A stretch of 28,938 nucleotides of DNA. It comes from Escherichia coli. GTDB taxonomy: Bacteria; Pseudomonadota; Gammaproteobacteria; Enterobacterales; Enterobacteriaceae. Numbering within the stretch: position 1 is the first letter of the stretch; each line of letters starts with the position of its first letter. The notes under the pieces were generated by a model. The model worked only from the letters and a program-made list of their open reading frames with translations. It did no database searches and was not told where the DNA came from. Location of the stretch: NCBI RefSeq assembly GCF_003334315.1, contig NZ_QOWR01000059.1; one strand, given 5' to 3'. Shown here piece after piece: positions 2,490 through 28,938 of the stretch. A program made the translations under genes and the position numbers.

Positions 2490-3875
2490 TTACTTACGAC
2501 GCCAGGTGGTCCCTTGCGGGCCATCTTCCAGCACGATCCCCATCTCGTTAAGACGATCACGCGCCGCATCCGCCGCCGCCCAGTCTTTCGCTTTACGGGC
2601 ATCCAGACGCTGTTGAATTAACGCTTCAATCTCAGCCACTTCGCTGTCGTCTGCCTGCGCGCCGCTTTGCAGGAACGCTTCCGGTTCTTGCTCCAGCAGG
2701 CCCAATACAGCGGAAAGTTTACGCAGGTGAGATGCCATTGCATTCGCCGCTGCCATATCTTCTGCTTTCAGACGGTTTACTTCACGCGCCATATCAAACA
2801 GTACGGAATAGGCTTCCGGGGTGTTGAAATCGTCGTCCATCGCTTCAATAAAGCGCGCTTCAAACGCTTCGCCACCGGCAGGCGCAACGGTTTTATCTGT
2901 GCCGCGCAGCGCAGTGTAGAGACGCTCCAGCGCCGCACGCGCCTGCTTCAGGTTCTCTTCGCTGTAGTTCAACTGGCTGCGATAGTGGCCCGACATCAGG
3001 AAGTAACGCACGGTTTCCGCGTCGTAGTATTTCAGCACATCGCGCACGGTAAAGAAGTTACCCAGCGATTTGGACATCTTCTCGCGGTCAACCATCACCA
3101 TCCCCGAGTGCATCCAGTAGTTCACATACTGACCATCATGGGCACAGGTGGACTGCGCGATTTCGTTTTCGTGGTGCGGGAACATCAGGTCTGAACCGCC
3201 GCCGTGGATATCAAAGTGGTTACCCAGCTGCTTGCAGTTCATTGCCGAACATTCAATGTGCCAGCCAGGACGACCCGCGCCCCACGGAGACGGCCAGCTC
3301 GGTTCGCCCTCTTTCGACATCTTCCACAGAACGAAGTCCATTGGGTTGCGTTTGTCGTCGACCACGTCAACGCGCGCGCCTGCCTGCAGCTGGTCGAGAT
3401 CCTGACGCGACAGCACGCCATAAGTTGGATCGGTCGGGACGTCGAACATCACGTCGCCGTTGTCCGCCACATAAGCGTGACCTTTGGCGATCAGTTGTTC
3501 AGTGAGTTCAATAATTTCTGCGATATGGTGCGTCGCGCGCGGCTCCATATCCGGGCGCAGAATGTTCAACGCATCAAAATCTTTGTGCATTTCGGCGATC
3601 ATGCGATCCACCAGCGCCACAAAGCTTTCGCCATTTTCATTGGCGCGTTTGATGATTTTGTCGTCGATATCGGTAATGTTGCGCACATACTTCAGCTTAT
3701 AGCCGAGGAAACGCAGATAGCGCGCAACCACGTCAAAAGCAACAAAGGTACGCCCGTGACCGATATGACAGAGATCGTAAACGGTGATTCCACACACGTA
3801 CATGCCGACTTCCCCGGCGTGAATAGGCTTAAATTCCTCTTTTTGGCGTGTCAGAGTATTGAAGATTTTTAGCAT
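2490..3875 (-). CDS. cysS: Cysteinyl-tRNA synthetase
   Basis: 461-aa [46 protein letters not shown]... with class-I aaRS HIGH motif and KMSKS (EKMSKSLGN). Confidence 0.97.
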
Positions 3876-8869: not shown

Positions 8870-10129
8870 TCAACCAATCCCCATGCTTTCAGCCAGTGCT
8901 TCCAGCGCCTGTTCAAAACACGCCAGCGGTGCCCGCACAGTGCCTGCGCCAATCTGCCCGATCCCCGCCTCTTTATGGGCGATACCGGTATTGATGAGTG
9001 GCGTAATGCCGGTTTCTACCACGCGACGAATGTCCAGTCCCAGGCACGCGCCCTGAAAATCCCAGCCTGGGATCTGCAACTGCATATTGCGCTCAAGGTA
9101 AATTTCCGCCATCTCTTCAGATACCGCTCTGGCCGCTTCCATGCCACCCGCACCGACAAAGCGCGTTACGCCAGGCGCTGCGATCATTGCCGCACCTCCG
9201 ATACCAAAGGTTTCGGTAATCGCGCTATCGCCCATATCCGGGTTCGCCTGCTCCTGCGAGAAGCCGGTGAAAAACAGACCTTGCGGAGTGTTTACAGGCG
9301 CAGTAAACCAGCGTTCGCCCAGCCCGCTTACCCGAATCCCGAACATATTGCCGTTGCGGGTCATTGCCGTGACGATGCTGCCTGCGCGGATCATCGCGCC
9401 AGCATCCATCGCCGCCTTGCAGTAAGCCATCGCGAGGTTGAGGAAGAACTGATCGGTCACGCTGAGGAAATCCATCACTTCGGCGATGTGCTGTTTATCA
9501 TGATCGAGGCGAGCAATTTGTGGGACCAGCGCACGCATTAACAGTGCAGAGGAAGCAATATTGCGTTGATGGAACTCATCGCCCATCGTAATGCCCTGCG
9601 CCATCATCGCCGTGAGATCGATACCGCGCTCCATGCGCCCCAGCGCCGCGCTTAATACTGGCATTAACACATCGCGCATCCAGCGATGGCGAGTCAGGAC
9701 ATCTTCGCCGTAAGCGCCAAAACGCATCACTTTGCCGATACCTTCGTTGAGGTTGCAGTACGCCCGGTTGCCGTCGGTCACGTTCTCAACCACCAGCATC
9801 GGCATACTGGCAGAAGTAATACCGCCCATTGGACCGACGGCATTCACATGGTGACAAGGAATGAAGTTCACTTCCCCCTGCTCCAGTATTGCCAGCGCCT
9901 GCGCTTCATCTTTCGCCCAGCCTTCGAACAGACATGCGCCCACGCACGCCCCTTTCATGGGTCCGGTCATCTCCTGCCAGCGCATTGGCGGCCCGGCGTG
10001 AAGCAGTGTTTTGCCCTCGTTTAGTTCGCTGATAAGTGAAGAAGCCGGTTGCACATCCAGCCAGTGTGGACGAGCGCGACGAATTTGTTCGATAACCGCA
10101 GCATTGGCTTGCGCCACTGATGTAAACAT
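8870..10129 (-). CDS. ylbE: YlbE (DUF1116 family; reported subunit of oxamate carbamoyltransferase), intact
   Basis: Uninterrupted 419-aa [29 protein letters not shown]...; AAGGGG RBS immediately upstream, overlapping the fdrA stop. Confidence 0.85.
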
Positions 10130-15302: not shown

Positions 15303-15406
15303 GCCTGATGCGCTTCGCTTATCAGGCCTACATGATCTCTGCAATATATAGAATTTGCGCGATTTTCAGGAAGGATATGGTACTCATGCCGCATCCGGCA
15401 TGAGTA
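15303..15406. repeat. REP-like palindromic elements between convergent allE and glxK
   Basis: GCCTGATGCGCTTCGCTTATCAGGCCTACA (REP-type) at 15303..15332 and palindrome TACTCATGCC-GCATCC-GGCATGAGTA at 15381..15406. Confidence 0.6.
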
Positions 15407-15452
15407 CTGCACTCTTATGCGATATAAATCGCATCCGCTTTAAAGGTAAGGG

Positions 15453-21900: not shown

Positions 21901-21999
21901 AATTAACCTCTTTTAAATTTCGCTTTTCCTGAATTCAGACAACACGATCCCCAGCCAACTTAGCGGCCTAAAAAAGCATTGTCTGAATAGCGTTACGTT

Positions 22000-22788: not shown

Positions 22789-24570
22789 TTATTCATAGTG
22801 CATGAAGCAGGTTTCAGTCGGTGCGTCCGCTGCGTTATCGGCGATATCTTCAAATTCCATGACGTTATCCAGTTCGCTGCCCATCGAAATATTGGTCACA
22901 CGCTCGAGAATAACTTCCACGACTACCGGTACCCGATATTGCGCCATTAAGGCTTTCGCCTGTTCAAAGGCTGGCGCAATATCTTCCGGTTTGAAGACGC
23001 GAATAGCTTTACAACCTAAACCTTCCGCTACTTTTACGTGGTCAACACCGTAGCCATTCACTTCACTGGAGTTGATATTCTCGAAAGCGAGTTGCACGCA
23101 GTAGTCCATGTCAAAAGCGCGTTGTGACTGACGAATCAGCCCCAGATAAGCGTTGTTGACCAGCACATGGATGTACGGAATGTTGAACTGCGCGCCAACA
23201 GCTAACTCTTCAATCAGGAACTGGAAGTCAAAGTCGCCAGAAATCGCCACCACATTGCGTTTCGGATCAGCGGCACAAACCCCTAGCGCAGCCGGAATCG
23301 TCCAGCCTAACGGACCAGCCTGACCACAGTTGATCCAGTGGCGGTCTTTAAAGACATGCAGCATTTGTGCCGCAGCGATTTGTGACAGACCAATGGTGGT
23401 GACATAACAAACATCGCGACCAAAGGCTTTGTTCATCTCTTCATACACGCGCTGCGGTTTCACCGGCACGTTGTCGAAGTGGGTTTTGCGCAGCAAAGTG
23501 CGTTTACGCTGCTGGCAGTCGGCGACCCATTCTTTACGACACGGCAGACGACCCGCTTTTTGCATCTCCTGCGCCACTTCAACCAGCAGTGTCAGCGCCG
23601 CTTTAGCATCAGAGACAATACCGAGATCCGGACACAGCACGCGACCAATTTGCGTCGGCTCAATATCAATATGAACGATTTTGCGCCCTTCGGTGTATTT
23701 CTCTACCGAGCCGGTATGACGGTTAGCAAAACGGTTACCGATACCAAACACCATGTCAGACGCCAGCAGCGTTGCGTTACCGTAACGATGCGCGGTTTGC
23801 AGACCCACCATCCCGGCCATCAGTTCATGATCGTCCGGGATACAGCCCCAGCCCATTAGCGTTGGGATCACCGGAACGCTGGTCAGTTCAGCAAACTGTT
23901 GTAACAGTGCAGCTGCGTCAGCATTAATTACCCCGCCCCCGGCAACAATCACCGGACGTTCGGCCTGGATTAACATTTCTACAGCTTTTTCGATCTGCAT
24001 ACGGCTGGCAGCAGGTTTGTAGACCGGCAGCGGTTCGTACATGTCAGGATCAAACTCGATTTCCGCAACCTGAACGTCGAACGGTAAATCCACCAGTACC
24101 GGACCCGGACGACCAGAACGCATCAGGTGAAATGCCTGTTGCAGCACGCGAGGCACCAGCGCCGCTTCACGAACTGTAACCGCCATTTTGCTGACCGGTT
24201 TAGCAATTGCTTCAATATCTACGGCCTGAAAATCTTCTTTATGCAGACGGGCGCGCGGTGCCTGGCCGGTAATGCACAGAATAGGAATGGAATCAGCAGA
24301 AGCGGAATAGAGCGCGGTGATCATGTCCGTGCCCGCAGGACCGGAAGTCCCCAGACATACGCCGATATTCCCTGCCGTTGCGCGGGTATAACCTTCCGCC
24401 ATGTGCGAAGCACCTTCCACATGACGCGCCAGAATGTGACGAATACCGCCGTGCTTACGCATCGCTGAGTAGAACGGATTGATTGCAGCTCCCGGAACAC
24501 CGAAGGCGGTAGTGATACCTTCTTTCTCCAGCACATACATTGCCGCGTCAACGGCTCTCATTTTTGCCAT
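22789..24570 (-). CDS. gcl: Glyoxylate carboligase (tartronate-semialdehyde synthase, ThDP-dependent)
   Basis: Start at ATG 24568..24570 ([34 protein letters not shown]...), 593 aa; the ORF-track start at 24660 is 30 codons upstream in the promoter. Confidence 0.95.
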
Positions 24571-27244: not shown

Positions 27245-28354
<1,110 letters not shown>

Positions 28355-28410
28355 TGAGGGACGTATTTGTATTAGTCGCGACTTGATCTGACACATGGCC
28401 TTGAAAGGTT

Positions 28411-28470
28411 GAGAGTTACCGGTTTTGATATGAGTGTCGAATCCTTATCCAAAACAAGAGGTAACTCTCA
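28411..28470 (+). other. Long inverted repeat / stem-loop spanning the RBS and start codon of the downstream HTH ORF
   Basis: GAGAGTTACCGGTTTTG (28411..28427) pairs with CAAAACAAGAGGTAACTCTC (28451..28470); the 3' arm contains AAGAGG and ends one nt before ATG 28471. Confidence 0.5.
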
Positions 28471-28841
28471 TGCTTCATACTGCCAATCCCGTCATCAAAC
28501 ACAAAGCCGGTTTGCTCAATCTGGCTGAAGAACTCAGCAACGTATCAAAAGCCTGTAAAATCATGGGCGTTTCGCGTGATACGTTTTATCGTTACCGCGA
28601 ACTGGTCGCTGAAGGCGGTGTGGATGCGCAGATTAATCGTAGTCGCCGCGCTCCTAACCTTAAGAACCGTACCGATGAGGCAACTGAACAGGCTGTTGTT
28701 GATTACGCCGTCGCTTTCCCGACACATGGTCAGCACCGGGCCAGCAACGAGCTGCGTAAACAGGGGGTTTTTATCTCCGACAGTGGTGTCCGTTCTGTCT
28801 GGTTACTCCATAACCTTGAGAATCTCAAAAGACGATACTGA
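28471..28841 (+). pseudogene. ylbG: Transposase-like helix-turn-helix protein fragment (ylbG-like IS remnant)
   Basis: MLHTANPVIKHKAGLLNLAEELSNVSKACKIMGVSRDTFYRYRELVAEGGVDAQ... resembles the N-terminal HTH of IS-family transposases with no catalytic domain following; start taken at ATG 28471 behind AAGAGG rather than the ORF-track start 28434. The position matches where I recall the K-12 pseudogene ylbG. Confidence 0.5.
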
Positions 28842-28861: not shown

Positions 28862-28938
28862 TGATCTTACCCAGCAATAGTGGACACGCGGCTAAGTGAG
28901 TAAACTCTCAGTCAGAGGTGACTCACATGACAAAAACA
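28862..28938 (+). mobile_element. insE: IS3 left end (IRL and start of orfA), continues beyond window end
   Basis: TGATCTTACCCAGCAATAGTGGACACGCGGCTAAGTGAGTAAACTCTCAGTCAGAGGTGACTCACATGACAAAAACA matches my memory of the IS3 left terminus and the OrfA start (ATG 28927, MTKT...). Confidence 0.85.

Follow-up and report, generated by a model that had tools for sequence, protein, structure and literature searches.

A conserved hairpin leader of an IS481-family insertion sequence, left behind in the Escherichia coli pseudogene ylbG, probably restrains transposase translation

Introduction

Why should a stem-loop of some 60 nt run up to the start codon of a small helix-turn-helix (HTH) open reading frame (ORF) directly behind the mnmH (selU) gene of Escherichia coli? 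The question is raised by a stretch of 28,938 nt from contig NZ_QOWR01000059.1 of assembly GCF_003334315.1 (hereafter the window; all coordinates are counted from its first letter). An earlier note, made from the sequence of the window, had pointed to this stem-loop and had offered three explanations for it: a hairpin that represses translation, a structure resembling a transcription terminator of selU, or a relic of the terminal repeat of an insertion sequence (IS). Comparison with related loci assigns the hairpin to the broken left end of an IS481-family element, the pseudogene ylbG, and reveals that it is carried by the element, conserved and held by base-pairing constraints. We estimate at roughly 65% the probability that it represents a conserved regulatory leader of this element, which would block transposase translation in transcripts containing the 5' arm of the hairpin.

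Results

The hairpin lies in the left end of an IS481-family element

The arms of the outer stem (P1; Table 1) are perfectly complementary over 10 bp, or over 11 bp if the pair T28410-A28470 is counted. Inside them, TTTTG (28423-28427) faces CAAAA (28450-28454) in a second stem, P2, whose arms are separated by 22 nt. The stem-loop described in the earlier note can thus be read directly from the sequence, and a repeat search recovers the same arm pair, lengthened to 16 nt at 88% complementarity. RNA folding, the check that the note had proposed, gives a stable structure for 28400-28485 (-25.7 kcal/mol, z = -3.5), with 1 of 200 dinucleotide shuffles folding as well; the opposite strand of the same region reaches -23.0 kcal/mol (z = -2.8). 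Two details of the original description need correction. The 3' arm had been said to stop one nucleotide short of the ATG; it ends at 28469 and adjoins the start codon (28470-28472), the A of which is able to pair. The arm had also been said to contain the Shine-Dalgarno sequence AAGAGG, which holds for the last two G, paired in P1, and not for the first four bases, which the fold places in an internal loop. The 3' arm of P1 therefore spans the end of the Shine-Dalgarno sequence, the entire spacer and the A of the ATG.

Taken alone, the perfect repeat of P1 proves nothing, because such repeats are not rare in the window: six perfect inverted repeats of at least 10 bp with loops of at most 60 nt are present, where first-order Markov simulations predict 1.65. 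The five others, with arms of 10-12 bp and loops of 4-54 nt, lie at 2455-2478, 9769-9843, 15380-15409, 21933-21988 and 22935-22985.

The context of the hairpin is provided by an IS that starts at 28368, 14 nt past the mnmH stop codon. From this position onward the window is 88-95% identical to complete copies, 1.2 kb in length, from plasmids of E. coli, Salmonella, Klebsiella and Serratia; the matches from relatives begin exactly at 28368, and the matching plasmid region is annotated as 'IS481 family transposase'. The full-length copy on plasmid NZ_CP010243.1 (locus L002; loci are numbered with an L) measures 1,201 bp, and its 26-nt terminal repeats (2501-2526 and 3676-3701 of that locus) are 81% complementary. 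Intact copies carry a single ORF of 344-346 codons, and those at L006, L008, L009 and L011 are flanked by target duplications of 6-7 bp. The relatives accordingly have the ends of IS481-type elements, namely terminal repeats starting with TGT and short target duplications. The intact copy of Serratia nevei (L006), 88% identical to the window at the DNA level, encodes a transposase that scores 288.9 bits on NCBIfam NF033577, above the family cut-off of 224.

Window homology to the S. nevei copy stops near 28836, and RefSeq lists ylbG as 'incomplete; missing C-terminus'. The HTH ORF of the earlier note starts behind the hairpin as stated there; its product is the truncated DNA-binding N-terminus of the transposase, with matches to HTH_29 (E 2.9e-20) and HTH_32 in Pfam. 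The hairpin occupies IS positions 44-102, between the left terminal repeat and the transposase start codon. The suspicion of a terminal repeat relic was therefore right for the region, a relic of an IS481-family element, and wrong for the arms, since the terminal repeats are those at the left boundary (Table 1) and at the lost right end. Since neither a complete transposase gene nor the right end is left, the hairpin in this window is a fossil. The module that remains keeps, at most, an HTH fragment untranslated, with no transposase left to control. Its inner part, consisting of P2, P3 and the apical loop, carries three substitutions in the window copy compared to intact copies.

Table 1. Coordinates of the hairpin, the surrounding IS remnant and adjacent features in the window
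Feature	Position	Strand	Basis or remark
Left ~469 nt of IS481-family IS (ylbG locus)	28368-28836	+	Rest and right end lost
Left terminal inverted repeat (IRL), TGTATTAGTCGCGACTTGATCTGACA	28368-28393	+	Pairs with right repeat in L002
Candidate transposase promoter, Pin-like, TTGAAA, 17 nt, TTTGAT	28401-28406 / 28424-28429	+	Predicted
P1 5' arm, GAGAGTTACC	28411-28420	+	Sequence read; with leading T, 28410-28420
P2, extended, GTTTTG / CAAAAC	28422-28427 / 28450-28455	+	Fold and relatives
Inner hairpin part (P2, P3, apical loop)	28422-28455	+	
P3	~28430-28436 / 28443-28448	+	Single-sequence folds, pair counts
Apical loop, inside conserved GTGTCGAAT	~28437-28442	+	Folds of 57 leaders
Shine-Dalgarno sequence, AAGAGG	28456-28461	+	Sequence read and fold
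P1 3' arm, GGTAACTCTC	28460-28469	+	Sequence read; with trailing A, 28460-28470
ylbG ORF, 123-aa transposase N-terminus (HTH domains), then stop	28470-28841	+	Pseudogene; ~122 initial transposase codons
Candidate outward promoter, Pout-like	28477-28504	-	Predicted; 16-nt spacer
Rfam RF02349 psRNA2 ('Proteobacterial sRNA'), sub-threshold match	28296-28467	-	31.1 bits, E 7e-6
IS3 left end, cut by window end	28862-28938	+	Far side of the relic, outside the hairpin system

Compensatory changes maintain the hairpin across the IS clade

A scan of one genome per species yielded 80 related loci in Gamma- and Betaproteobacteria, with transposases 78-98% identical to the query and with hosts among the Enterobacterales, Alteromonadales, Vibrionales, Moraxellales, Burkholderiales and others. 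These loci contain 57 distinct leaders. When each leader was folded singly, the P1-P2-P3 architecture appeared in all 57, with 10 bp in P1, 6-9 bp in P2, 3-6 bp in P3 and a conserved apical loop within the motif given in Table 1. The earlier note had made its hairpin depend on the presence of the repeat at homologous loci, and no distinct leader lacks it. In all of them P1 ends 0-2 nt ahead of the start codon. Even the relative in Burkholderia glumae keeps P1, with further G-C replacements, and there the stem ends at a GTG start codon.

In an ungapped count of P1, anchored on GTTACC and GGTAAC, 565 of 570 cells are paired, and 4 of the 10 pairs show double (compensatory) changes, in at least four lineages: GAAAG/CTTTC in Acinetobacter, TAAGG/CCTTA in Aquicella, GAGGG/CCCTC in Alkanindiges and AGAAG/CTTCT in two further genomes. 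Plasmid relatives with co-changing arms come from Serratia, Pseudoalteromonas, Photobacterium, Acinetobacter and Aquicella. The inner stems follow the same pattern. P2 has changed on both sides in Vibrio and Photobacterium (CTTTG/CAAAG), Undibacterium (TTTAG/CTAAA) and Arsenophonus (TTTTAAT/ATTAAA), and P3 switches from A-U to G-C between marine and enteric copies. An alignment fitted with a covariance model, made with a stricter E-value that excludes reverse-strand palindrome matches, has 99.3% of P1 paired and 14 of 28 pairs changed on both sides; none of 500 shuffles reaches the observed values, and controls with slid partners attain at most 54.5% pairing. In an unfitted MAFFT alignment, which misregisters the 3' arm of Acinetobacter and so undercounts the compensatory changes there, 89.8% of cells are paired, compared to at most 58% with partners slid.

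Leader identity averages 81% (84% in paired columns), whereas, in the same genes, the codons chosen for an identical amino acid agree in only 45% of cases, which places the leader under purifying selection at the nucleotide level. Its conservation and covariation in relatives show that the hairpin is more than a chance palindrome and that a base-pairing constraint maintains it across the IS clade.

Several individual copies deviate. Candidatus Arsenophonus triatominarum harbors at least 14 near-identical copies in one endosymbiont genome (L075, L078-L090), with an outer stem degraded by one G-U pair and two mismatches (-9.6 kcal/mol, compared to about -23 elsewhere). The weakened hairpin may have accompanied the burst in copy number; Mixta mediterraneensis, with at least seven copies and an intact stem, is a counter-case to this idea. 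In Vibrio sp. 99-8-1 (L072, upstream of 601), the first ~14 nt of the left repeat are fused to the end of the 3' arm (…TGTATTAGTTCCGA|ACTCTCATG…), and the entire hairpin is deleted together with the Shine-Dalgarno sequence. Finally, the transposase match in a metagenome-assembled genome of the Chromatiales (L055, 601-2015) extends over 1,415 nt instead of 1,038 and contains a match to the leader model at 901-989, which suggests that another element inserted into the IS copy or that the copy was rearranged.

The hairpin is not an mnmH signal

Lying 57 nt past the mnmH stop codon, in a window where about 1.65 perfect 10-bp inverted repeats are expected by chance, the hairpin could be taken for a terminator or attenuator of mnmH, or for a fortuitous palindrome. 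We regard both ideas as barely credible. An intrinsic (Rho-independent) terminator of mnmH should combine a GC-rich stem with a U run and be conserved with the gene; here the stem is followed by ATGCTTCAT, which is coding sequence rather than a U run, and a simple promoter and terminator scan of 28200-28700 listed no terminator-like or promoter site. Moreover, the hairpin lies inside the IS and moves with it into unrelated hosts and contexts, and about half of the E. coli genomes have mnmH without it: among 5,407 genomes with the mnmH 3' end, 2,907 run on into the IS, and in the remaining ~2,500 homology ends within a few bases of the mnmH stop codon. The proposal of a selU terminator-like structure is thus contradicted by sequence comparison, and covariation rules out chance. 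E. coli FDAARGOS_1253 (L093, 2655-2900) exemplifies a genome without the rhs/ylbG segment, in which mnmH is followed by two palindromes of the repetitive extragenic palindromic (REP) type (GCCGGATGCGGCGTGAACGCCTTATCCGGCCTAC) and by the convergent ybbP.

Transcripts containing the 5' arm are predicted to be closed for translation

The inverted repeat pairs upstream sequence from within the IS with the ribosome-binding site (RBS) and the start codon, the arrangement that defines fold-back inhibition. The computed cost of opening the region from -13 to +3 depends on the 5' arm: it is 11-17 kcal/mol for RNAs beginning outside the element, at its end or at IS position 28, and about 5 kcal/mol for an RNA that begins at -33 and lacks this arm. 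Because structure at the initiation site is an established limit on translation, RNA containing the 5' arm is predicted to be strongly repressed. Among the proposals of the earlier note, it is thus the translational repression hairpin that is favored by the compensatory stem, by its distance of 0-2 nt from the start codon and by the difference in opening cost.

We propose the following mechanism. The sense RNA would fold into P1-P2-P3, in which IS positions 44-53 pair with the final two Shine-Dalgarno bases, all of the spacer and the first base of the AUG. In every transcript holding the 5' arm the RBS would then be closed, and no transposase would result. The chief target should be transcription that enters from outside the element, at this locus read-through from mnmH. 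The native promoter most likely resides inside the hairpin, with TTGAAA and TTTGAT separated by 17 nt and a start near the apex, and the native mRNA, lacking the 5' arm, would be translatable. Read on the other strand, the palindrome would form the body of an outward antisense RNA of the psRNA2 type.

Regarding the native promoter, the TTGAAA-17-TTTGAT combination is the top plus-strand sigma-70 match in 32 of 40 leaders scanned, including the window, and among the top two in 38, albeit as a weak match to the weight matrix, and each hexamer is more than 90% conserved. A start about 7 nt downstream of TTTGAT, near 28436, would coincide with the hairpin apex.

If transcription instead began in or upstream of the IRL, the hairpin would be a constitutive part of the native transposase mRNA and would either act as a constant damper or be a switch that a factor acting in trans, an antisense RNA (as Asr9 does for ISPpu9), temperature or a protein binding the conserved apical loop could open. 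A further short hairpin, P0, is conceivable upstream of P1, centered on the conserved CTTGAAAA and in many cases closed by a loop of the GNRA type (GAAA, GTAA, GCAA), and, if real, it implies that the transcript starts upstream of P0. The strong conservation of the apical loop GUCGA and of a G-U pair in P3 also counts for a constitutive leader, and the opening of a closed leader by an antisense RNA has been described for ISPpu9 (PMC8450116). However, P0 is only 74% paired, with many unpaired cells and with a register that differs between enteric and marine copies, neither the simple scan nor the weight-matrix scan found a promoter-like site in the IRL, and no ligand or protein partner is indicated. 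A constitutive leader therefore appears unlikely to us.

The opposite strand is homologous to the Rfam family psRNA2

On the minus strand, the window matches the Rfam model psRNA2, a family described as a small RNA (sRNA; Table 1). Neither this match nor those of relatives (32-58 bits) reach the RF02349 gathering score of 65, and all 20 relatives tested match on the same strand. The hairpin is thus homologous to psRNA2 and outside the curated family by the Rfam threshold. Model positions 1-114 correspond to the antisense of the IS left end (P1, P2, P3 and IRL), and the Rfam consensus draws the same outer stem, inner stem and apical loop. In contrast to our reading, Rfam models the strand opposite the transposase, describes an sRNA gene and mentions no IS, and the last ~87 model positions are flanking sequence outside the IS. 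The model consensus is closest to plasmids of B. glumae. Strain BGR1 has a true psRNA2 member (144.6 bits), the position of which is precisely opposite an IS481-family transposase leader; our sense-structure model finds this leader on the transposase strand. These relations indicate that RF02349 represents the left end of IS481-family elements rather than a free-standing sRNA gene. The Burkholderia-type leader (L092, 1601-1720, plasmid bglu_1p), with its GTG start, is the sequence type underlying psRNA2; where the 3' arm of P2 leads to that of P1, it contains an extra hairpin of 13 nt (GCGC-GCAA-GCGC). ISPpu9 was considered as a source of psRNA2 on account of conserved REP flanks and was rejected, as it belongs to the IS110 family.

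Which strand is under selection? The sense strand gives the more stable fold in 49 of 57 leaders, averaging -22.8 kcal/mol compared to -20.7 kcal/mol for the antisense fold. G-U cells in P1-P3 outnumber A-C cells by 62 to 20, and the extra hairpin has a GNRA loop (GCAA in B. glumae, GAAA in the Rfam consensus) only in the sense orientation. The evidence thus leans toward the sense strand.

The functional product might nevertheless be an outward antisense sRNA, similar to psRNA2 and comparable to the IS481 Pout RNA or the IS10 RNA-OUT, that starts just upstream of the transposase start codon and runs through the hairpin and the IRL into the flank. The inverted repeat would then be kept as an antisense stem-loop that pairs with the 5' end of the transposase mRNA, a role compatible with translational repression by the sense leader. 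Besides the minus-strand matches to psRNA2 in the window and its relatives, the bona fide B. glumae member opposite an IS481-family leader and the good fold of the window minus strand, this possibility gains from the IS481 Pout transcript, which has been mapped by rapid amplification of cDNA ends (5'RACE) and overlaps the Pin transcript (PMC11774165; PMC6161684).

A candidate outward promoter likewise fits such an RNA. Its -10 hexamer, CAGTAT (TAGTAT in relatives), is the reverse complement of 28477-28482, and its -35 hexamer, TTGTGT, that of 28499-28504. Transposase codons 3-5 and 10-12, which coincide with the TAGTAT/TTGTGT boxes, have a codon entropy of 0.7-0.8 bits compared to a gene mean of 1.29, and these frozen synonymous sites hint at a constraint from the minus strand. 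The near-frozen sites at 28476-28505 in 53 intact genes comprise CAT (47/47), ACT (50/51), AAC (41/42), AAA (52/53), CAC (45/52) and AAA (50/53); the neighboring codons vary freely. On the other hand, frozen sites near a start codon have other possible causes. The Pout-like candidate recurs in a minus-strand weight-matrix scan, where several inconsistent candidates compete with it. The better sense fold, the excess of G-U over A-C cells and the sense-only GNRA loops also count against the antisense product, and a literature search on the origin of psRNA2 returned nothing usable. Overall, we consider an antisense sRNA as the functional product a serious possibility, if one short of even odds.

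The arms share a motif with the right end of the element

The 5' arm bears a subterminal motif, AGTTACC, that is repeated directly inside the right terminal repeat of intact copies, and the AGTTACC-NNN-TTT part may be a transposase-binding site. The motif occupies 28415-28427 in the window and recurs in the right ends of L002, L006, L008, L009, L011, L024, L025 and others. The left-end motif lies about 21 nt further in than the right-end motif, as would result if the segment bearing TTGAAA had entered an inverted repeat that was originally longer.

This raises the question of whether the arms are DNA sites, either subterminal transposase-binding repeats or a palindromic operator overlapping the gene start, with the RNA hairpin as a by-product. 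At both ends of intact copies, AGTTACC is followed by 3-4 variable bases and TTT, and the variable bases are mostly identical at the two ends of one copy (CCGG, CCCG, CCCAC, CCAG, CCGA). The encoded N-terminus is an HTH DNA-binding domain, and the right end of relative L061 also matches psRNA2 (37.9 bits, plus strand). The pattern of substitutions, however, makes this explanation distinctly improbable. The variable GAGAG of the 5' arm follows the 3' arm in its changes, whereas the right-end copy remains GACAG in Acinetobacter, Aquicella and others, so that base pairing, rather than a shared protein site, explains the stem. Selection on a protein site should keep the sequence constant rather than produce Watson-Crick covariation; furthermore, P2 and P3 covary too, and G-U cells are tolerated.

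The right ends of intact copies (L006, 2330-2401; L008, 2335-2406; others) have a conserved hairpin of their own directly after the transposase stop codon. It consists of CTGACAG(x)CACC, a loop and GG(G)TAACTGTCAG leading into the right terminal repeat, with no U run after it.

The remnant is bordered by IS3

On the E. coli chromosome, the order within the window is allA, allS, mnmH (27260-28354), ylbG and IS3. The last element begins at ~28862, which we take to be the IS3 terminus, about 25 nt beyond the break of the IS481-family remnant; the ORF that RefSeq annotates as 'IS3-like element IS3 family transposase' starts at window position 28927. Since many E. coli genomes have ylbG without IS3, ylbG was apparently truncated before IS3 inserted.

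Discussion

Our analysis describes a hairpin that travels with an IS481-family element and whose pairing is preserved by compensatory change, and we favor its interpretation as a leader that would keep stray transcripts from producing transposase. A number of points weigh against this interpretation. The leaders are related, so that the shuffle statistics overstate their independence, and only about 4-7 independent compensatory events were counted in P1. Some relatives, those of the AAAGGTGGTAAC type, keep most of the Shine-Dalgarno sequence in the internal loop; what is occluded in them is consequently the spacer and the AUG. The sense strand is preferred by a modest 2 kcal/mol on average, one conserved G-U pair supplies much of the G-U excess, and the homologous element in Rfam is an sRNA assigned to the opposite strand. 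As to the native promoter, TTTGAT makes a weak -10 box without the A at position 2, for which reason the stricter promoter scan lists nothing there, and pairing in P2 could explain the conservation of this hexamer by itself. If the promoter lay in the IRL or outside the element, the hairpin would be part of every transposase mRNA, and the logic of silencing only outside transcripts would fail. Lastly, what speaks for repression in the case of this element is comparative and computed throughout.

A more far-reaching idea is that a single palindrome provides a three-part control resembling that of IS10 across the Gamma- and Betaproteobacterial IS481-family clade, combining an mRNA start at the apex, fold-back inhibition and an antisense RNA of the psRNA2 type. 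The 5' arm would at the same time serve as a subterminal site for transposase binding, shared with the right end, and thereby couple end recognition to expression control. We put this forward tentatively and rate it as rather doubtful. If true, it would reassign the Rfam 'sRNA' psRNA2 to a regulatory module of an IS and would mean that the IS10 design evolved convergently in an unrelated family.

Irrespective of this extension, the hairpin is neither a signal of selU/mnmH nor a regulator of a cellular HTH protein, and the comparison yields a well-supported structured leader for a widespread IS481-family clade. In Bordetella and other pathogens, elements of the IS481 family bring about genome rearrangement and outward transcription, and a leader of this kind is relevant to the activation of IS481-family elements by read-through, whether used or feared. 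For genome annotation, there is a risk that sRNA matches beside transposase genes are misread.

How does the leader compare with known systems? Transposase leaders that hide the RBS have been established for IS10 and IS50; an antisense RNA frequently overlaps such leaders. IS10 (Tn10) is reportedly governed by the promoters pIN and pOUT, by the antisense RNA-OUT and by fold-back inhibition of read-through, as described by Simons and Kleckner in 1983, Davis and colleagues in 1985 and Kittle and colleagues in 1989. The likeness to the present element would be threefold. In both, the region where transposase translation is initiated pairs with IS sequence upstream of it, through an inverted repeat close to the IS end; the predicted native start coincides with the hairpin apex, as the 5' end of RNA-IN faces the loop of RNA-OUT; and an outward antisense RNA may arise from the same palindrome. 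An IS10-like layout of antisense RNA and fold-back thus plausibly fits the data, although IS10 belongs to the IS4 family, is unrelated in sequence and differs in that the promoters and the antisense RNA of the present element are predicted ones.

Within the IS481 family itself, our literature search on leader structure and on ylbG expression returned nothing usable. In IS481 of Bordetella pertussis, the type element of the family, Pin (boxes TGGAAA/TTCACT) and Pout (boxes TCGAGT/CATGCT) have been mapped by 5'RACE (PMC11774165), and their transcripts overlap by 19 nt (PMC6161684, PMC11774165). A search for the terms 'stem-loop' and 'secondary structure' found no mention of either in PMC11774165. 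The transposases belong to the same family, TGGAAA/TTCACT resemble the TTGAAA/TTTGAT considered here, and IS481 has an outward transcript at its left end.

Experimental counterparts of the predicted repression come from two other elements. A stem-loop in the 5' untranslated region (5'UTR) of IS200 tnpA covers the RBS and lowers translation, and the antisense sRNA art200 overlaps this leader (PMC4513863). In ISPpu9, a 5'UTR structure likewise covers the RBS and lowers translation, and the overlapping antisense RNA Asr9 activates (PMC8450116). Both elements share with ours a transposase leader hairpin that hides the RBS; they belong to unrelated families (IS200/IS605 and IS110, respectively) and have no sequence similarity to it. 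In this light, the transposase leader hairpin described here would be an ordinary kind of transposon self-restraint, in a family different from those of the known cases.

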